From NCBI GenBank assembly GCA_964444545.1, contig CAYUHG010000002.1, forward strand, positions 45,989-109,988: DNA of 64,000 nt, in the 5' to 3' direction. Position 1 is the first letter of the stretch, and each line of letters starts with the position of its first letter. The notes under the pieces were generated by a model. That model had not been told where the DNA came from. It saw only the letters and a list, made by a program, of their open reading frames with translations, and searched no databases. Of the stretch, positions 34,553-58,986 are shown piece by piece. The translations under genes and the position numbers were made by a program. The stretch is from an uncultured Rhizobium sp. Lineage in GTDB: Bacteria > Pseudomonadota > Alphaproteobacteria > Rickettsiales > UBA1997.

Positions 34553-35770
34553 ATGATCTTTAGAAAGCTGAAAAACTTTTTTGAATTAGAAGCCGCAACT
34601 GCAATTTTATTGTGTGTCGCTACATTTATTGCGATGTCTTGGGTTAACTCTCCTTTTTCTCAAGTTTACTCGCAGACGTTAAAAATTTCACTACCGCTGG
34701 TTGTTGATTTTTTGCAAATTGAAAAAAATTTATCTCTAAAAGACTGGATCAACGATGCTTTAATGGCATTGTTCTTTTTTTTGATTGGTCTGGAACTAAA
34801 AAAAGAAGTTTTAATTGGTGAATTAAACAACATTAAAAAAATCATCTTACCGGCGATTGCCGCTTTTGGTGGTGTTATTGTTCCTGCGCTGATTTTTTTC
34901 GCCTTTAATTTTAATCAGCCGCAAAATCTTTCAGGATTTGCAATCCCAACTGCAACTGACATCGCTTTTGCTTACGGAATATTATGTTTTTTTGGCAAAA
35001 GAATTCCGCATTCTCTCAAAATTTTTATCGTAACTTTGGCAGTTCTTGATGACCTGTTGGCGATTTTAATAATTGCGATTTTTTACACTCATGAATTGCA
35101 TCTGACGCATTTATTTTTGGCGCTAGTACCTCTTACAGCCTTGTTCTTACTCAACTATAGCAAATCAGATAACATCTTCTTTTATATTCTTTGTGGAATT
35201 TTTCTATGGTTGATGATTTTGCAGTCAGGAATACACGCTACTTTGGCCGGAGTTTTGTCAGCTTTATTCGTGCCACTAAAAGTTGGTCGTAAAGACTTTT
35301 TGAATGACTTGGCTCATAAAATTTCTCCAGCAGTAAATTTTGTTATTTTACCGATTTTTGCATTGGCAAATAGTGGTGTAAAAATTTCTCAAAACTTTGC
35401 GACTGAAATTTCAAATCCACTTACTTTGGGAATAATTTTTGGTCTATTTTTTGGTAAACAAATTGGTGTGATGTTGTTTAGTTTTTTAGCGGTAAGATTT
35501 AGAATTGCTGTTTTGCCAAAAAATCTCTTTACTACTGTTTCTTGGTTACAATTCTACTCCGTGTCAATTTTTACAGGTATCGGATTCACTATGAGTTTAT
35601 TTATTGGTGAGCTCTCTTTTGTACAAAATAATATATCTCCAGAATTGCTTGAGATAATTCTTGACCGCCTAAAAATTGGAATTTTAATCGCCTCAATCCT
35701 TTCCATTTTCTGCGGAAGTTTTGTTATCCTGTTTCTCAATAAATCAGTACAATTTAAGTATGAAAAATAA
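34553..35770 (+). CDS. nhaA: Na+/H+ antiporter NhaA
   Basis: 405 aa polytopic protein. LFFFLIGLELKKE, ATDIAFA and LAVLDDL motifs. Confidence 0.9.
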   Translation: MIFRKLKNFFELEAATAILLCVATFIAMSWVNSPFSQVYSQTLKISLPLVVDFLQIEKNLSLKDWINDALMALFFFLIGLELKKEVLIGELNNIKKIILPAIAAFGGVIVPALIFFAFNFNQPQNLSGFAIPTATDIAFAYGILCFFGKRIPHSLKIFIVTLAVLDDLLAILIIAIFYTHELHLTHLFLALVPLTALFLLNYSKSDNIFFYILCGIFLWLMILQSGIHATLAGVLSALFVPLKVGRKDFLNDLAHKISPAVNFVILPIFALANSGVKISQNFATEISNPLTLGIIFGLFFGKQIGVMLFSFLAVRFRIAVLPKNLFTTVSWLQFYSVSIFTGIGFTMSLFIGELSFVQNNISPELLEIILDRLKIGILIASILSIFCGSFVILFLNKSVQFKYEK

Positions 35771-36677
35771 ATCTAGTGCCTTTTCATTGATTGAGCTTTC
35801 AATCGTTATCCTAATTATTGGGGTACTAATCGCTGGCGTTACGCAAGCAAGTCGTCTTGTTAGACAATCGAAATTAACAACTGCCAGAACTCTTACTCAA
35901 AGCTCTGCAGTTAATAGTATCAAAGGTCTAGTGCTATGGTTGGAACCAACTATGGAAAACAGCTTCAAATCTACTGAAGCAGTTGATGGAACTACTTTGA
36001 CAACTTGGTACGACATCAATCCACAGCTTTCTATCCCTAACACTTTTTCTGCTGGTACTGGTATAACTTACAAAGCTTCGAGTGGTATCAACTCTTTGCC
36101 AGCAGTTGCTTTTGCAGATAATAATACGTCTTTCTCAAATGTACTTGCTGTTCCAATTAATGCCGCTTTTGGTGCTTACACAGTTTGTTACGTTGCTCGT
36201 TCAACTAACCTTACTGCGGAAAATACTGTATTATATAACGGAACTAGCGGTACTAACGGTTTCGGTATCAGCATTACTTCAGCAGGTTTGACTAAAGTTA
36301 CTTATGGTGTTTCTTCAACTTTCAACTTCGGTATTACAGCTACTTCTGGTGGTACTGCTGATATTGTTTGTGTAACTCTTGATCCAAATTCTGTAAATGG
36401 TGTTCCACAATCAACTGCTGCTGCTAAAGCTTACAAAAATGGTGGCGGTGTTTCTAGCGATACTGCTAAAACTATCACCGTTTCTAACTGGGTTGACCCA
36501 ACTAGCGGTGCGGTTCGTATTGGTAACTCAACTGCAAGCAGCACTACTACCGACTTTATCGGTGAAATTGCTGAAATCATTGTTTTCGACAACGCTTTGA
36601 AAAAAGCTGATCGTCAAGAAGTTGAAAAATACTTGAGCAAAAAATATGGAATCACAATTGCTCAAGGTGCTAACTAG
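35760..36677 (+). CDS. prepilin-type N-terminal methylation-domain protein fused to a LamG-like lectin domain
   Basis: Start at MKNKSSA|FSLIELSIVILIIGVLIAGV. C-terminal GEIAEIIVFDNALKKADRQEVEKYLSKKYGI is LamG-like. Confidence 0.75.
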   Translation: MKNKSSAFSLIELSIVILIIGVLIAGVTQASRLVRQSKLTTARTLTQSSAVNSIKGLVLWLEPTMENSFKSTEAVDGTTLTTWYDINPQLSIPNTFSAGTGITYKASSGINSLPAVAFADNNTSFSNVLAVPINAAFGAYTVCYVARSTNLTAENTVLYNGTSGTNGFGISITSAGLTKVTYGVSSTFNFGITATSGGTADIVCVTLDPNSVNGVPQSTAAAKAYKNGGGVSSDTAKTITVSNWVDPTSGAVRIGNSTASSTTTDFIGEIAEIIVFDNALKKADRQEVEKYLSKKYGITIAQGAN

Positions 36678-44565: not shown

Positions 44566-46437
44566 ATGCACAAATATCGCACGCACAATTGTTCTGAGCT
44601 TAACATAAATCATTACAAAAACTCTGATGGTTCTATTAAAACAGTTGAAGAAAGAACTGTAAAACTTTCAGGTTGGGTTCATTCGAAAAGAGATCACGGA
44701 AGTTTGATCTTTATCGATTTGCGCGATCATTTTGGTATTACGCAAATCGTGATTGATAGAGATTTATTGCATTCCTCATTCAAAAAAAACGAAGGCTCTT
44801 CATCAGAAGGAGCGGTAACTTTTTTGTTAAATCAAATCGCTTCAATTAAACTTGAATCAGTAATCACAATTGTCGGCGAAGTTTTGGCTCGTGGTGCGGA
44901 AGTGGTGAATGCGAAAATTCCGACTGGTGAAATTGAAGTTAAAGTTAATGAGTTAAGCATCGAATCTTTGGCCGAACAAATTCCTTTCCAGATCAATGAC
45001 GGCAACGAATATCCAGAAGAATTACGTTTGAAATATCGTTTTCTTGATCTGCGTCGTGAAAAAACTCACAAAAATATTGTGTTGCGCAGCCAGGTAATTT
45101 CAGAGATTCGCGCTGAAATGACCAAACAAGGTTTCTTAGAAATTCAAACTCCGATTTTGACTGCTTCATCTCCAGAAGGTGCACGCGATTATTTGGTTCC
45201 AGCGCGTCTTCACCCGGGAAAATTTTACGCTTTACCGCAAGCACCACAACAGTTCAAACAGCTTTTGATGGTTTCAGGTTTCAACCGTTATTTCCAAATC
45301 GCGCCATGTTTTCGTGATGAAGATTTGCGCGCTGATCGCAGCCCAGAATTTTATCAACTCGATATGGAAATGTCGTTTGTTGAACAAGAAGACGTGTTCA
45401 ACGCTATCGAGCCAGTTCTTAAAAATATTTTTACCAAATTTGGTACTAAACGCACTTTAGAAGAAAAATTTATTCACATTCCTTACTCGGAAGCGATGTT
45501 AAAATATGGCATCGACAAGCCAGATTTGCGTAACCCAATTTTGATTTCAGATGCGACTGAAATTTTCCGTGGTTCAGAATTTTCGATTTTTGTAAAACAA
45601 ATTGAACAAGGTGCGTCAATCCGCGCTATTCCTGCACCGAAATGTGCAGCGCAACCACGTTCATTCTTTGATAAAATGATCGAACATGCACAAGGCTGTG
45701 GTGCAAAAGGCTTGGCTTACATTATTTTTGATGAAAATGGTGAAGCGAAAGGTCCAATTGCGAAATTTTTATCAGCGCAAAAATTAGCCGAACTCAAAGA
45801 AACTGCTGGTTTGCACAATGGTGATGCTGTTTTCTTCTCATGCGGAAAAGTTTCTGAAGCTGCCAAAATCGCTGGTCAAGTTCGTATCAAACTTGGTCAC
45901 GACTTAAACTTGATTGACGAATCGATTTACAAATTCTGCTGGATCGTTGATTTCCCGATGTTCGAACTTAACGAAGAAACTGGTAAAGTTGATTTCTCGC
46001 ACAACCCATTCTCAATGCCACAAGGTGGCTTGGAAGCTTTAAACTCGCAAGATCCGCTGACGATCAACGCTTTCCAATATGACATCGTTTGTAACGGTGT
46101 TGAGTTGTCTTCAGGTGCAATTCGTAACCACAAACCAGAAATTATGTATCGTGCTTTCGAGCTTGCTGGCTATGGTCGCGAAGTTGTGGAGAAACAATTT
46201 GGTGCGATGCTAAACGCTTTCAAATTCGGTGCTCCTCCACACGGTGGTTTGGCTCCAGGGATTGATCGTATTGTTATGCTTTTAGCTGATGAACCAAACA
46301 TTCGCGAAGTAATTCCATTCCCAATGAATGGTAAAGCGCAAGATTTGATGATGAATGCTCCAGCGCAAGTTGCTGAAAAACAGTTGCGTGAATTGAGTAT
46401 TGATCTGAGCAAAAAAGCTAAGGACGCTCTGGCCTAG
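44566..46437 (+). CDS. aspS: aspartyl-tRNA synthetase
   Basis: Class II motifs [10 protein letters not shown] and [11 protein letters not shown]. 623 aa, with a small extra insert in the N-terminal OB domain. Confidence 0.95.
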
Positions 46438-52324: not shown

Positions 52325-53806
52325 ATGACTTCTTTCTCAGAATTAAATTTAAATCCAAAAATTCTCGTATCCCTTGAAAAAAAAGGTTATGTGAATCCAA
52401 CTCCAATCCAGCTTCAAGCTATTCCACCGGTTTTAGAAGGCAAAGATCTTTTGGGAATTGCCCAAACTGGAACTGGCAAAACTGCGGCGTTCTCGCTTCC
52501 TATCATCCATAATTTAGCGAAAAGCGGAATCTCAGTAAAAAGCGGCTGCGTGCGCGCTTTGATCTTAACCCCAACTCGTGAACTTGCTTCGCAAATCGCC
52601 GAAAATGTTGATGCTTACAGCAAAGATTTAAATTTACGTCACGCGGTGATTTACGGTGGAGTTTCTGATCGCGCTCAAATTAATGCTTTGCAACGTGGTG
52701 TTGATATTTTGATCGCAACCCCGGGACGATTGCTAGATTTGACTTCTCAAGGTCACATTCGTTTTATGCAAGTTGAAGTTTTGGTTTTGGATGAAGCTGA
52801 TCGTATGCTTGATATGGGTTTTGTTAACGACATCAAAAAAATCATCGCGCGTTTGACTAACAAAAGACAGACGTTGTTTTTCTCGGCAACTATGCCGCCA
52901 GCGATTACTGATTTAGCCAGTTCAATTTTAACCGATCCGATACGCATCGAGGTTACTCCTCAATCAACCACAGTTGAGCGTATTGATCAGAAAATTATGT
53001 TTGTGGAATGGCGTGATAAATTGCCGTTGTTGCGTCATCTTCTAAAACAGCCAGATGCAACGAGTGTGATCGTTTTTTCACGTACCAAACATGGCGCCAA
53101 TGACGTAGAAGATTATTTAGAACGTAATCGTATCGCTGCTGCAGCAATTCACGGCGACAAAGATCAAGATCAGCGCGAGAAAGCTTTAAACAGATTTCGT
53201 GAAGGAAAAATTCAGGTGTTAGTCGCAACCGATGTTGCAGCGCGCGGTATTGATATTCCTGCGATCAGCCATGTAATTAATTTCGATATTCCTGTTGATC
53301 CAGAAAGTTATGTTCATCGTATTGGTCGTACTGCTAGAGCAGGTCGACAAGGTGTGGCAATTTCGTTTTGTGATCCAAATGATGACAAGCTTTTGTTGGC
53401 GGTTGAGAAGGCGATTAACTACAAAATTCCAGTTGATAATTCTCATCCTTTCAGCACCAGAAGATCAAAAGAATCAGTAGCTCAAAATGATTCTCGTAAG
53501 CTTGAAAGAAAGCCGCAACGTCAAGAAGATAGAGTTGAGAATCGTGCGCCAAAGCAACGTGAAGAACGTCATGAAAATCGTCAAGAACATCACAGAGAAA
53601 ATAGCCAACCAAAAAAGAAACAAGGCGGAATTTTAAGTTTTATTCTCGAGCTTTTTGGCATCAAAAAAACAGTTGAGAAAAAACATCATAGAAGAAGAAA
53701 TAATTCGGGAAAAAACGATTTCAGAAAATCTGATTCAAACAGATCGAGAAAACCAAGAAGAAATCACAGCAATAGATCGCCCAATAATTCAAAAAATTTT
53801 AGCTAA
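52325..53806 (+). CDS. DEAD-box ATP-dependent RNA helicase (RhlE-like), basic C-terminal tail
   Basis: AQTGTGKT, DEAD, SAT and HRIGRTARAG. The tail is rich in R/K/N/E. Confidence 0.9.
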   Translation: MTSFSELNLNPKILVSLEKKGYVNPTPIQLQAIPPVLEGKDLLGIAQTGTGKTAAFSLPIIHNLAKSGISVKSGCVRALILTPTRELASQIAENVDAYSKDLNLRHAVIYGGVSDRAQINALQRGVDILIATPGRLLDLTSQGHIRFMQVEVLVLDEADRMLDMGFVNDIKKIIARLTNKRQTLFFSATMPPAITDLASSILTDPIRIEVTPQSTTVERIDQKIMFVEWRDKLPLLRHLLKQPDATSVIVFSRTKHGANDVEDYLERNRIAAAAIHGDKDQDQREKALNRFREGKIQVLVATDVAARGIDIPAISHVINFDIPVDPESYVHRIGRTARAGRQGVAISFCDPNDDKLLLAVEKAINYKIPVDNSHPFSTRRSKESVAQNDSRKLERKPQRQEDRVENRAPKQREERHENRQEHHRENSQPKKKQGGILSFILELFGIKKTVEKKHHRRRNNSGKNDFRKSDSNRSRKPRRNHSNRSPNNSKNFS

Positions 53807-54453: not shown

Positions 54454-56508
54454 TTACCAAGATTTTTGTGGTCTAAAAGATCCGCCACCAGAAGGTCTTC
54501 TGTCACCGAAAGGTTTTCTGTTACGATCACCAAAAGGTTTTCTATCGCCGTTACTTGATCTGCGGTCGTTTCTTTGGCCGTCTCTACGATCACTGAATCC
54601 GCCGCTAGATCTTTCAGAATTTCCGAAAGACGAGTTTCCTCTGCGATCGTTGTTTCCAAATGAGTTGCCGCGATTGTCGTCGTTACGATCAGATCCGCGA
54701 GAATTTCTATCACGGTTACCGCCAAATCCTGAACCGTCTCTGCGGTCGCGATTTGGTCTGCCGAATCCATCGCCGCTTCTACCACCGAAGCCTTCACCAC
54801 TTCTGCCGCCGCGAGAAGAGTTTCTGTCTCTGCCGCCAAATCCTGAAGAATTTCTTTGACCACCAGATGATCTTTGATCTCTGCCTTGTGGTAAGCCGTC
54901 GCGTCCGGTGAAAGAAGGTTGTTCATCACGATTTCTGCGATCTCTACCGCCCCCGTTACGTGATTCAGTTTTTTTACCTTTCAACCAACCTAGACCAAAA
55001 CCACCGCCTTTTTCTTCTTCTTTAACGCGGAACGGAGTGTTACGATCTACAGATTGAGCTGCTCGTTTTTTACCAAAACCGATGAAGTTCAAAAGGCTGC
55101 TTTTTGTGCCGTCAGGTTGTTGATCTTCACTACGTTTTGGTTTTCTGTCGAAATTTCTTTTACCGTCTCTGCGATCAGATCTTTCGCCTCTCTCAGAAGA
55201 ATGAGGTGAAGATCTTCTATCGTTATTTCTGCCGCCTCTGTTTCTGTCACCAGAACTTCTTCCTTCGCCAGAACTAGCTGGACGAGAACGTTGTCCTGAA
55301 CGCTGTCCAGAATTTTGTCTTCTAGGACGATCAGAATTGTTAGAATCTTGCGAAGAAGAAGGCGCTGCTTCTACACCGTGATACGCATGGGTGGTATCGA
55401 CTGGAATATTAAAATTTATAGTTTTTTCCACTGCTTTTAAAAGTCTGGTTTCTGAAGGATCACAAAAAGAAATAGCAACACCTTGGCGACCGGCGCGTGC
55501 TGTGCGGCCGATACGGTGCACATAACTTTCTGGATCCATCGGGATGTCAAAATTAATAACATGGCTGATTGAAGGGACATCAATGCCACGTGCTGCGATA
55601 TCTGTTGCGATAAGAACTTGTACCTTACCTTCGCGGAAGCTGGCAAGTGCTTTTTCACGAGCACCTTGCGATTTGTTTCCGTGTATTGCTGCAACCGCAA
55701 TCGAATTTTTTTCTAAAAATTCTAAAATGCGATTTGCACCGTGCTTGGTTTTTGAAAATACCAAAACGCTTTGTGCTTCTTCATCTTTCAAGATTCTTTT
55801 TAGAAGTGAAAGCTTATTTCCTTTTTGCACCTGCATAAGTTTTTGTTCGATACGCTCAACAGTTGTTGATTGTGGCGTAATTTCGATTTTCACCGGATCT
55901 TTCAAAATAGAATGAGCTAAGTCGTTGATTGCGTCAGGCATGGTTGCTGAGAAGAAAAGCGTTTGTCTTTCTTCCGGAATTTTGGCGATAATTTTTTTAA
56001 CATCGTTAAAGAAACCCATGTCGAGCATGCGATCAGCTTCGTCTAAAACAAAAATTTCCAAATTCGAAAAACGAATGTGACCTTGAGTTGCTAAATCAAG
56101 CAAACGTCCGGGAGTTGCGATTAAAATATCGACACCGCGTTTCATCGTAGCGATTTGTGGACGTTCAGAAACGCCGCCAAAAACTACTGTGTGAGTTAAG
56201 TGTAAATCTTTGCCGTAAAGTTTGATGTTATCAGCGATTTGCGAAGCGAGTTCGCGAGTTGGAGTTAAAATCAAAGCACGTGCGCCGTTGCTTCTAACCT
56301 CTTTATTGCTAGCGGCAAGATTTTGTAAAATAGGTAAAGAAAATGCGGCGGTTTTGCCAGTTCCGGTTTGGGCGATTCCTAAAAGATCTTTGCCTTCAAG
56401 AACTGCGGGAATTGCTTGAAGTTGGATCGGAGTTGGTGTTGTGTATCCTTTGCTTTCAAGTGCTGAAAGAATTTTTGAGTTTAAGTTTAAGTTTTGAAAA
56501 GTTGTCAT
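54454..56508 (-). CDS. DEAD-box ATP-dependent RNA helicase paralogue with a roughly 300-aa RGG/RD/SR-rich low-complexity tail
   Basis: The core is about 70 % identical by eye to 52325..53806 (same AQTGTGKT/DEAD/SAT/HRIGRTARAG). The tail carries GGRDRNSSRGGRSGEGFGGRSGDGFG and tandem KPFGDRNRKPFGDRR. Confidence 0.9.
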   Translation of the reverse strand: MTTFQNLNLNSKILSALESKGYTTPTPIQLQAIPAVLEGKDLLGIAQTGTGKTAAFSLPILQNLAASNKEVRSNGARALILTPTRELASQIADNIKLYGKDLHLTHTVVFGGVSERPQIATMKRGVDILIATPGRLLDLATQGHIRFSNLEIFVLDEADRMLDMGFFNDVKKIIAKIPEERQTLFFSATMPDAINDLAHSILKDPVKIEITPQSTTVERIEQKLMQVQKGNKLSLLKRILKDEEAQSVLVFSKTKHGANRILEFLEKNSIAVAAIHGNKSQGAREKALASFREGKVQVLIATDIAARGIDVPSISHVINFDIPMDPESYVHRIGRTARAGRQGVAISFCDPSETRLLKAVEKTINFNIPVDTTHAYHGVEAAPSSSQDSNNSDRPRRQNSGQRSGQRSRPASSGEGRSSGDRNRGGRNNDRRSSPHSSERGERSDRRDGKRNFDRKPKRSEDQQPDGTKSSLLNFIGFGKKRAAQSVDRNTPFRVKEEEKGGGFGLGWLKGKKTESRNGGGRDRRNRDEQPSFTGRDGLPQGRDQRSSGGQRNSSGFGGRDRNSSRGGRSGEGFGGRSGDGFGRPNRDRRDGSGFGGNRDRNSRGSDRNDDNRGNSFGNNDRRGNSSFGNSERSSGGFSDRRDGQRNDRRSSNGDRKPFGDRNRKPFGDRRPSGGGSFRPQKSW

Positions 56509-56922
56509 TTTAAATGTTAAAAGTTTGGCTCTTGAGTGCGCTTTCAGAGCCTTGTAAGAAGAAAATTAATGAAGCTTCTTTTAAGTTTGTTTTATCCCGC
56601 TTGAATCTTTGTTTAAAAGGTCGGTAGGGATCTTATCAGATTTTGAATTAGCCTAAATTCAAGAAATCATCGAAGTGCTTTGGCATCTACAAAGAGGACT
56701 GAATTTTATAGAGATTGAAAGGTTTTTTCAGGTCTCAGGTCTGTTACAAGTTATGCTACATCTTTATTTGGCGACACCAAATATTTGTGTGGTGGTTGCA
56801 TTATGAAAGTCATAATTTATAAATGCTACCATTAACATTTAATTATAAATTTAAATTAGGAAAAACTAAATATAGTCGGTAGAAGCTGAATCTATAAAAA
56901 CCAGAAAAAATTCTATTATTTT

Positions 56923-58917
56923 GTGAAAAAAATCAAACTCATTAAAACTAAAAGCACAAAGCGTTTAAAAGCTTTCTCGATGATCGAGTTGTCGATCGTT
57001 ATTTTGATTATTGGTATTTTGATTTCGGGAATTTTGGCTTCGAATGCGATTATCAAGAAGTTTCGTATTCAGACGGCTCAGACTCTGACGATGTCGTCAC
57101 CGGTGCAGGGGATTCCGGATTCAGTTTTGTGGTTGGAGAGTAGTTTGGATAAAAGTTTCAAAGAGTCAGAGAGTTCTGATACTACTAGTTTAAGTGCTTG
57201 GTATGATGTTCGAGAATCTGTGAACAAGAACAATGCGACCCAGAGCAACAGCGGTAATTATCCAACTTATTCGAATTCGATTAACAGTATTCAAGCTGTG
57301 AAGTTTGATGGAACTAATGGTTATTTCAGCGTTGATGGCAGTGTTTTGAACAACACGAATTACACGATTTTTGTTTTAGAGCAGAGGGAGAGCAGCAAGA
57401 GCGGGAATTATTTTATTGGCGATTCTTCATCAGGTAATGAGTCGACAACTAATAAGAACTTAGTGTTAGGCTATAGTGCTGATGGTACGATTAAGCATTC
57501 TCAATCGAGCGATAATTCTTACACCTCATCAATTTCTTCTTACTCATCTTCGAACGGTAAGCCGAGAGTTTTCACGTTTGTGCATGATAAGGCTTCAGGG
57601 AAGAAGACTTATATTAATGGTCTTTTGGCTGCGACTTCTACTGATACGAATCATTTATCTGGGATGACTACTTTGACGATTGGTAAGTCATATCAAGGTC
57701 AGATTGGCGAGGTTGTGATGTTTGCGAGAGCGCTGACAACTGAAGAGCGTCAATCGGTTGAAGATTATCTAGGTAAAAAATGGAATAGTAAGATTCTAAG
57801 ATCAGTTGGATCATCATCTTCATCTGGAGGAATTGGTGGAAGTTGTGTTGGAGGTACGGTGAGTGATTCTGGATGTTTGACTGCTTGTACTGTTACTGCG
57901 GCGACTGGGATTACTGATACTACGGTTGGTGGTGGAACAGGATCTTTGACTTGCAATACCGCAGCAAACTTCACTGGCTCTCTGCCGTACACTTGTTTGA
58001 ATGGAGTATTTGCCTATACTGGTGCGACTTCTTGTTCTTGTGCTACTGGATATACAGCAAGTGGTTCGACTTGCGTAACTTCAGCTTGTACCGGTGGTAC
58101 AGAATCAACAGCGACGGTTTCTGGTATAACTTATAAAGTTCATACTTTTACTTCTGATGGCAGCTTATCTTGTCCAACAAGTCGTTCTGCTGAGGTTTTG
58201 GTAGTGGGTGGTGGTGGTTCAGGTGGTTCTGCAAATCCGAATGCTGGTGGTGGTGGCGGCGGTGGTGGTGGTGTTGTTTATTCCGCATCATATACTCTTT
58301 CTACTAGTTCATATACTGTTACTGTCGGTGCTGGTGGTGCTGGTGTTGCGGCTACTGTTGCTCCGCCAGGAGTTCCTGGTAATAATGGTGGTGATTCTTC
58401 ATTTGGAACTTTGACTGCAAAGGGTGGTGGTGGTGGTGGCGCTCTTTATAATAATTCTACTGGTTTAAGCGGTGGATCTGGTGGTGGTGGATCTTGGTTT
58501 GCCAGTGGAGGATCTTCAACTCAAACTGCTCAAGCCAATCAAACCGCTCATTACGGTAGTGTTGGTGGTACTAGTACTGCACAAGCATGCGGTGCTGGCG
58601 GTGGCGGTGCTGGTGGTACTGCGAGTGGTACGGGAAACTGTATTGGTGGCTCGGGAGTATTAATTTCAATGACTGGCGGATATTATAGTGCTGGTGGTGG
58701 TGGATCTGGTGGAAACCCTAATGGAAGTTTACCGGGTGGTGCTGGTGGTACTGGTGGTGGTGGTGCTGGTGGTAAAGGTGCTCCAAATACAACAGCTGGT
58801 GGCAATGGAACGGCGAATACTGGAAGTGGAGGTGGTGGATCAACTAGCTATACATCTAGAGTTACTTATTCTGGAAATGGTGGATCTGGTATTGTAATCG
58901 TGCGCTACGCTCAATAG
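56923..58917 (+). CDS. prepilin-leader / LamG / Cys-rich / glycine-rich-domain protein (664 aa)
   Basis: GTG start; KRLKA|FSMIELSIVILIIGILISG. LamG-like GQIGEVVMFARALTTEERQSVEDYLGKKW. Cys-rich stretch, then VLVVGGGGSGG...GGSGIVIVRYAQ. Confidence 0.75.
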   Translation: MKKIKLIKTKSTKRLKAFSMIELSIVILIIGILISGILASNAIIKKFRIQTAQTLTMSSPVQGIPDSVLWLESSLDKSFKESESSDTTSLSAWYDVRESVNKNNATQSNSGNYPTYSNSINSIQAVKFDGTNGYFSVDGSVLNNTNYTIFVLEQRESSKSGNYFIGDSSSGNESTTNKNLVLGYSADGTIKHSQSSDNSYTSSISSYSSSNGKPRVFTFVHDKASGKKTYINGLLAATSTDTNHLSGMTTLTIGKSYQGQIGEVVMFARALTTEERQSVEDYLGKKWNSKILRSVGSSSSSGGIGGSCVGGTVSDSGCLTACTVTAATGITDTTVGGGTGSLTCNTAANFTGSLPYTCLNGVFAYTGATSCSCATGYTASGSTCVTSACTGGTESTATVSGITYKVHTFTSDGSLSCPTSRSAEVLVVGGGGSGGSANPNAGGGGGGGGGVVYSASYTLSTSSYTVTVGAGGAGVAATVAPPGVPGNNGGDSSFGTLTAKGGGGGGALYNNSTGLSGGSGGGGSWFASGGSSTQTAQANQTAHYGSVGGTSTAQACGAGGGGAGGTASGTGNCIGGSGVLISMTGGYYSAGGGGSGGNPNGSLPGGAGGTGGGGAGGKGAPNTTAGGNGTANTGSGGGGSTSYTSRVTYSGNGGSGIVIVRYAQ

Positions 58918-58931
58918 CAATTGCTCAGAAA

Positions 58932-58963
58932 TAAAAAGCCGATGACTTAAAAAATCATCGGCT
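58932..58963. terminator. bidirectional hairpin terminator between the pilin-like gene and the efflux operon
   Basis: agccgatga-cttaaaaaa-tcatcggct, with an A5 tract on the plus strand (U-tract for the minus-strand transcript). Confidence 0.6.
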
Positions 58964-58986
58964 TCTGACTCCCTATAAAACTTAAG

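Follow-up and report, generated by a model that had tools for sequence, protein, structure and literature searches.

A modular prepilin-type protein with a LamG-like domain, a cysteine-rich stalk and a phage tail-fibre-like glycine-rich head, from a paralogue family with constant N-terminal halves and diverged heads

We analysed a 64,000-nucleotide stretch (the window; positions 45,989 to 109,988 of contig CAYUHG010000002.1) from an assembly of an uncultured Rhizobium sp. (GCA_964444545.1; Rickettsiales, UBA1997 in the GTDB) that comprised 1.65 Mb in 58 contigs with 38% GC content. A gene at window positions 56923..58917 on the plus strand (GTG start, TAG stop) encodes a modular prepilin of 664 amino acids (aa), which has homologues of related architecture. 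Four modules make up this open reading frame (ORF): a class III prepilin signal, a LamG/concanavalin A (ConA)-like domain, a stalk with nine Cys and a PF21722 glycine-rich head. An earlier note, made from the letters of the window alone, had proposed these four modules, and the proposal was correct, with TIGR02532, PF13385 and PF21722 all scoring above their cut-offs. Sequence criteria place the protein among the type IV pilins, and profile and fold place it in PF21722. On balance, it is probably a modular type IV pilin-type adhesin drawn from a variable repertoire, which is the reading best supported by the evidence below.

The GTG codon at 56923 is the earliest possible start downstream of the preceding stop codon. 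It opens a basic leader peptide of 17 residues (VKKIKLIKTKSTKRLKA; residues 1–17, 56923..56973, plus strand) with Ala at −1, which runs into FSMIELSIV and gives the predicted cleavage site KRLKA/FSMIE. The class III signal of type IV pilins has a hydrophilic leader whose last residue is Gly, rarely Ala, followed by Phe or Met at +1 and Glu at +5. The 664-aa protein has Phe at +1 and Glu at +5, and the TIGR02532 prepilin N-terminal model matched it with 18.7 bits against a cut-off of 16.3 (23.5 bits in the genome scan). The ORF, its GTG start and the basic leader followed by FSMIELSIV were all present as the earlier note had described them. The GTG start is also supported by the paralogues, since a basic leader ending in Ala-Phe is kept in all of them. 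In the database, this protein is called as a shorter gene product (P0002, 645 aa) that begins at Met20 (nucleotide (nt) 56980) and lacks the class III signal peptide, so family members may go unrecognised as pilins in automated annotation.

The mature N-terminus (FSMIELSIVILIIG...) carries Phe1, Glu5 and Gly14 and forms the pilin alpha-1 helix (residues 18–57, 56974..57093, plus strand). AlphaFold2 placed a helix at residues 20–57 with a predicted local distance difference test (pLDDT) score of about 90, which corresponds to the long hydrophobic helix of type IV pilins, and PDB sequence profiles matched this segment to the N-termini of geopilin, PilA and MshA. The full-length AlphaFold2 model had a pLDDT of 91.5 and showed the helix followed by a beta-sandwich in the N-terminal half.

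This beta-sandwich is a LamG/ConA-like domain (residues ~64–295, 57112..57807, plus strand), recognised through PF13385, AlphaFold2, Foldseek and phrog_10356. Its PF13385 core spanned residues 129–275 (nt 57307–57747) with an E-value of 1.8e-9 and 38.4 bits against a cut-off of 27.6 when the domain was excised, and was not detected when the full-length protein was searched. The LamG-like domain that had been placed at about 57100–57800 from the letters is therefore real, and its position directly after a pilin N-terminus is that of the ConA-like module (PF13385/IPR013320) in PilC-type modular pilins. The full-length Foldseek search was dominated by ConA-like lectin jelly-rolls. Matches to the clostridial neurotoxin Hc and NTNH, to a trans-sialidase lectin domain and to arabinanase domain 4 were set aside as generic jelly-roll matches to the LamG domain that say nothing on toxicity; the fold matches of this domain imply no function beyond “lectin-like”. 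The top full-length Foldseek match, the Pan3 tailspike (9vyh_p), was absent from the head-only search and was not used as evidence on the head; given that absence it aligns elsewhere, probably with the lectin sandwich.

The Cys-rich stalk (residues 308–389, 57844..58089, plus strand) consists of beta-hairpin modules with the pattern C..F.G...Y.C..G......C. The earlier note had seen a Cys-rich stretch here with about 12 Cys; the stretch was confirmed, and the count was not, as nine Cys lie within it and a total of 12 is reached over the full protein, with three more at residues 417, 556 and 573. The number of stalk modules differs among homologues, with an additional module in the paralogue on contig C16, and matches of the stretch to epidermal growth factor (EGF)-like and complement control protein (CCP)-like domains were weak.

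The head (residues 390–664, 58090..58914, plus strand) is a beta-sandwich joined to a glycine-rich lattice, as indicated by PF21722, PHROG, structure models and Foldseek. PF21722 (Gly_rich_2) matched residues 415–662 (nt 58165–58908) with an E-value of 5e-21 and 76.1 bits against a cut-off of 24.3, and the match covered profile positions 8–225 of 226. We aligned 27 heads from this genome and related metagenome-assembled genomes (MAGs). About 12 conserved glycine blocks occurred in identical order in all 27, including CTGG, YK.H.F, VLVVGGGGGGG, GGGGGAGGVVY, GGGGGG, GGSGGGG, GGGGGGAG, YYAGGGG, GTANTGGGGGG and GGSGIVIVRY, and length variation and indels were confined to the segments between blocks. 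Gly accounted for 64 of the 96 columns conserved at 70% or more. The head modelled on its own reached a pLDDT of 87 and a predicted template modelling (pTM) score of 0.91, and a Foldseek search of the PDB with this model returned a single fold class (Bxb1, Pam3 and ALK/LTK), with no competing folds. The best solved structures were chains Qb and Qa of the Bxb1 tail tip (E-value 1e-6, template modelling (TM) scores 0.59 for Qb and 0.50–0.54 for Qa, 23–26% identity over ~260 columns), followed by the Pam3 cyanophage fibre (E-value 1.6e-4, TM 0.44–0.48) and, at ranks 5–24, the glycine-rich (TG) domains of ALK/LTK (E-value ~0.02, TM ~0.2–0.25). The Pam3 fibre was also matched by a sequence profile of the heads (E-value 4e-4), with the C-termini aligned as GGsGivIvrY and GKQGIIIVQY, and the beta-sandwich of the head may be called tumour necrosis factor (TNF)-like by analogy with Pam3 gp24. 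Among predicted viral structures, 231 matched the head at an E-value of 0.001 or below; the best was a cyanophage S-TIM4 model (E-value 1.6e-23, TMq 0.87, 39% identity), and others came from Micromonas and Bathycoccus viruses (prasinovirus proteins), a haloarchaeal phage and a pelagiphage. In the PHROG collection, phrog_2295 (E-value 1e-49) and two tail families matched the head. T-even gp38 (6F45) was not within the top 50 Foldseek PDB matches of the head, which thus gave no direct structural match to it. The likeness to phage tail-fibre-like and giant-virus proteins that the earlier note had pointed to is borne out by these matches.

The head is thus a folded domain of a known class and not low complexity. 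The note had named, as a result that would overturn its reading, profile and structure searches revealing mere low complexity with no conserved motif order; the searches made module by module returned the conserved order in 27 heads and a confident fold. We give virtually no credence to the explanation that the glycine-rich part is low complexity or the remnant of a dead prophage tail fibre. Its composition is indeed biased (Gly is 32% of the head), and pseudogenised copies exist in the same genome; against this stand the motif order and the fold, an intact frame, a ratio of nonsynonymous to synonymous substitutions per site (dN/dS) of 0.16 in the head relative to its closest orthologue, and the absence of flanking phage genes.

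The fusion of a pilin with a glycine-rich head is not rare: MAGs of environmental alphaproteobacteria contain a large unnamed family of such proteins. At an E-value of 0.001 or below, more than 1843 database proteins matched, and among the 120 best matches listed most had a PF21722 record, some also with PF07963 or PF13385. The closest homologues came from freshwater and groundwater MAGs labelled Rickettsiales, Alphaproteobacteria or Pelagibacterales by their submitters. Within the present genome PF21722 matched at 11 places, 10 of them above the cut-off; six copies are full length and several more are cut by contig ends. Contigs ended inside paralogues at the ends of C8, C13 and C31, at the start of C19 and at both ends of C12 and C20, which makes the family a main cause of breaks in the assembly. 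The domain was found in 22 of 121 sampled genomes of the same order, nearly all with one or two copies compared with 11 here, and two congeners had one and zero copies, numbers in which MAG assembly may hide copies. The window itself holds a stand-alone prepilin + LamG paralogue with neither stalk nor head (35721..36677, plus strand), which is ~30% identical to residues 7–300 and corresponds to the “chassis” of the fusion proteins.

The paralogues combine a constant N-terminal half with variable heads. Five full-length paralogues shared 89–97% aa identity in the pilin and LamG regions and 35–57% in the heads, while the sixth (on contig 4) had diverged over its whole length. The N-terminal halves had 80–85% nt identity, a proportion of synonymous differences (pS) of 0.47–0.72, which is near saturation, and dN/dS of 0.02–0.09; dN between heads was ~0.5. 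Gene conversion was considered as the cause of the likeness of the N-terminal halves and rejected, since nt identity reached only 80–85% with synonymous sites near saturation, and the likeness is due to purifying selection at the protein level. Saturated synonymous sites together with low dN/dS indicate that the copies are old and the chassis is strongly constrained, with the heads having diverged. The best homologue (P0003) was 82% identical over the full length, head included, and each head type is itself maintained, as the head dN/dS given above indicates. Three heads of the genome were closer to counterparts elsewhere (82, 68 and 88%) than to the paralogues at home (57% or less).

Comparison of loci pointed to gain, loss and recombination of family members. 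In a congener (G116), the helicase gene and the efflux genes that flank the 664-aa gene here were separated by a 373-nt spacer with the pilin gene absent, so that within one genus the same site may or may not carry the gene; the intergenic DNA of G116 was too diverged for an alignment that would place the exact insertion boundaries. P0003, an orthologue by sequence, is found elsewhere: in a related assembly it lies in the slot flanked by ftsA and mfd. The ftsA–mfd slot of the present genome holds a decayed paralogue (contig C1, 118423–119799, minus strand) with three in-frame stops at Gln, Ser and Glu codons, in which nearly the whole head is deleted and the first glycine motif is joined to the last (VVVGGGTGG...GGSGVVIVRYAQ). 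Glycine-codon repeats may have mediated this deletion. Another paralogue in the genome carries two frameshifts. In two related syntenic MAG loci (L017 and L018) with a background identity of 85–94%, a head-coding tract of ~750 nt (L017:7298–8047) was 98–100% identical at the nt level, with dS of 0.018 compared with 0.39 in the N-terminal half. The tract starts at about the start of the glycine-rich region and ends at the end of the gene. From these identities we read it as a probable case of recombination limited to the head; the alternative is a chimeric MAG assembly.

The genome encodes the main parts of a type IV filament system. The earlier note had suggested a search for pilus machinery, and that search found an A24 prepilin peptidase (PilD, PF01478) on contig 14, three PF00437 proteins (PilB-like, PilT-like and VirB11-like ATPases), a PilC platform gene (PF00482) and one secretin (PF00263), that is, the peptidase, ATPase, platform and secretin by which type IV filament systems are recognised. 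The secretin (C14:8337–9983, minus strand) is short (548 aa) with a lipoprotein-like signal (LLSCSS); housekeeping genes surround it, and no pilMNOP genes adjoin it. Prepilin-type N-termini numbered 22 in the genome. The intact prepilin-type ORFs have mature lengths of at least ~266 aa, and their leaders nearly all end in Ala-Phe, with one Gly-Phe. As a separate observation, a PilB-like ATPase gene (C20:27290–28426) adjoins, in convergent orientation, the head of one paralogue (C20:29852–30577), which was the sole case seen of a family member beside a pilus machinery gene.

If the 664-aa protein is a pilin-type adhesin, the prepilin peptidase of the genome would cut the basic leader after Ala17, and the hydrophobic alpha-1 helix with Phe1, Glu5 and Gly14 would anchor the protein in the inner membrane and let the scattered PilB/PilC/secretin machine load it into a type IV filament. 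Its position would most likely be at or near the filament tip because the protein is bulky. The filament would display outward the LamG-type lectin, a disulfide-bonded stalk and, distally, the head, in which the conserved glycine motifs would act as scaffold and the variable loops between them as binding face, as in phage tail-fibre tips. About a dozen genes with a near-identical pilin + LamG chassis carry different heads, and they may represent a repertoire of binding specificities that turns over through gene gain and loss and head-limited recombination. The protein would probably bind to the surface of another cell, a host or prey, which the PilT-like ATPase could pull in by retraction. What the analysis shows directly is the order of domains, the fold class, the make-up of the family, the pattern of selection and the existence of the machinery genes; cleavage, incorporation into a pilus, exposure at the surface (the “surface protein” of the earlier note) and binding are inferred.

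We put forward only tentatively the further idea that these small-genome freshwater alphaproteobacteria, which submitters label Rickettsiales-like, use the type IV filament to display phage-type receptor-binding heads from a dispersed library whose members can be exchanged. The first and last conserved glycine motifs would then be recombination junctions, whole heads would be swapped among genomes, possibly also with phages, onto the constant pilin–LamG chassis, and the set of heads present at a given time would decide which cells, host or prey, are open to attachment. If true, phage host-range cassettes would have a counterpart in cells.

Several observations weigh against a pilin-type adhesin. 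The Ala at −1, where Gly is usual, is atypical, though it is the rule in this genome, and the 17-residue leader exceeds the length of type IVa pilin leaders. No classical major pilin (120–200 aa) was found among the 22 prepilin-type N-termini, PilN had no match in the genome in a test of low sensitivity, and the machinery genes are scattered, none of them adjoining the gene at 56923..58917. TM-scores of the head to solved structures are moderate (0.5–0.6). In phages such heads work as trimers and depend on a chaperone (Pam3), and no such partner is evident here. None of the RNA runs searched contained the gene. The assembly breaks in the paralogues make the copy number approximate (~12–14). 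The missing major pilin and PilN, together with the single short, lipoprotein-like secretin that stands apart from any pilMNOP genes, would suit a protein that never becomes surface-exposed, either membrane-anchored in the periplasm or part of a pseudopilus like that of a type II secretion system (T2SS), with a lectin and a head that bind secreted cargo or parts of the envelope. T2SS pseudopilins share the class III signal, and a weak GspH match was obtained. We nonetheless regard this explanation as unlikely, in view of the PilT-like retraction ATPase, of about a dozen heads (dN ~0.5) with types shared across genomes, which better fit outward recognition, and of the close structural relatives of the head, all of which are extracellular receptor- or ligand-binding modules.

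It is more improbable still that the protein is a released soluble lectin or agglutinin whose pilin-like N-terminus is a mere export signal, with the type IV filament machine working as a secretion piston. Such machines can secrete proteins, and a bulky 65-kDa cargo may not fit the filament body; however, no part of the family is more conserved than the alpha-1 helix with its Glu5 and Gly14, and strong purifying selection acts on it, as expected of a polymerisation interface and not of a signal that is discarded, and known modular pilins remain on the pilus. A contingency locus, in which slippage of GGT/GGC runs alters the head within a population, is very unlikely. The GGT/GGC run that the earlier note had placed at 58247..58275 is real and lies at 58245..58273 (plus strand), as a nine-codon Gly tract (GGT3 GGC2 GGT4) in the second glycine motif, and the decayed C1 paralogue has lost nearly its whole head between the first and last such motifs. 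The Gly codon runs are, however, in frame, interrupted, mixed in GGT, GGC and GGA and limited to 5–6 perfect repeats (the longest perfect GGT run has 5.7 copies, at 58423–58439). Logan contigs that cover the head, from one soil run and from two freshwater runs of a single study, showed 0–1 differences and no indels, a weak test, as contigs can hide rare variants. All Gly-run lengths were identical in the 82%-identical orthologue P0003 despite a head dS of ~0.77, and the glycine columns are the most conserved columns in the family. The length variation that had been proposed for these runs was therefore not upheld.

Among known systems, the nearest to a pilin-type adhesin of this build are the modular pilins, in which a pilin followed by a PF13385/ConA-like lectin is among the commonest architectures (PMC8179133). 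One of them, PilC of Streptococcus sanguinis (pilin + ConA-like module), acts at the pilus tip as an adhesin that binds glycans (PMC9934059). PilC and PilB (pilin + von Willebrand factor A (vWA) module) of that species have, like the 664-aa protein, a class III signal, an alpha-1 helix and grafted modules (PMC9934059, PMC8179133), and for both the S. sanguinis proteins and ours the adhesive modules are predicted to lie at the pilus tip. The 664-aa protein adds the Cys-rich stalk and the PF21722 head, which are not listed in the survey of modular pilins (PMC8179133). It further differs from S. sanguinis PilC in its host, a diderm alphaproteobacterium, and in belonging to a set of about a dozen paralogues whose heads vary on a constant chassis. 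The large adhesive proteins of the PilY1/CofB type at the type IV pilus tip can also be likened to it, but PilY1 is a non-pilin with a beta-propeller and CofB has different beta domains, and no homology of either to the 664-aa protein was detected.

For the head, the closest parallels are viral. The Pam3 gp24 domain is a TNF-like sandwich that runs into a lattice of glycine-rich motifs, with a conserved glycine stem and a hypervariable receptor-binding tip (PMC9608196). Pam3 gp24 (PDB 7YFW/7YPX) and the 664-aa head are alike in joining a beta-sandwich to a glycine lattice that ends in ...GG.G(I/V)(I/V)IV.Y and in having distal loops that vary on a glycine stem that is conserved. In Pam3 the head is carried by a trimeric helical shaft and depends on the chaperone gp25, whereas the head described here is carried by a pilin–LamG–stalk chain. 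The polyglycine-rich proteins of the Bxb1 tail tip (PDB 9D93, chains Qa and Qb), its best solved-structure match, are virion proteins on a central fibre and not pilins. In gp38 of T-even phages and S16 (PDB 6F45), glycine-rich scaffold motifs alternate with hypervariable specificity segments (PMC9608196); gp38 shares the design logic of the head but has a different number of layers, a likeness by analogy only and not one of membership. The TNF-like + TG domain of ALK/LTK (PDB 7LIR, 7NX1) has the same fold class, but belongs to the ectodomain of a metazoan receptor kinase that binds protein ligands.

Modular pilins are a recognised route to new functions of type IV pili, but studies have dealt only with vWA, lectin and a small number of further modules. 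The present family would add to that list a glycine-rich head of the phage tail-fibre-tip/ALK type, and would show that bacteria, and not viruses alone, use the glycine-rich scaffold as a diversifiable recognition module. The family comprises database proteins in the thousands and has expanded to about a dozen copies in this 1.65-Mb genome, and so probably matters for how such bacteria, uncultured and with reduced genomes, locate partners, hosts or prey. Its chassis/variable-head layout and the head-limited tract lead to testable hypotheses on specificity switching. The author of the earlier note was not aware of this fusion having been characterised, and our literature searches on PF21722 and on pilin + glycine-rich fusions likewise found no publication.

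The neighbours of the gene at 56923..58917 are TrmD, DEAD-box helicases and an RND efflux operon, all of them housekeeping genes. A 414-nt spacer (56509..56922) separates it from a divergent DEAD-box helicase gene and is presumed to be the promoter region; a promoter scan found no plus-strand sigma-70-like site upstream of 56923. Downstream, a hairpin with a 15-bp stem (58934..58966) lies before the convergent outer-membrane efflux gene and scored as a minus-strand terminator. A search for the ATP/ADP translocase, a lifestyle marker, gave no match, as did its control. The window also contains two paralogous, divergent DEAD-box helicase genes (52325–53806, plus strand, and 54454–56508, minus strand), the second of which encodes a C-terminal tail of ~330 aa very rich in Arg, Gly, Ser, Asn and Asp, with RGG/RNS-like repeats, that is unusual for a bacterial helicase.

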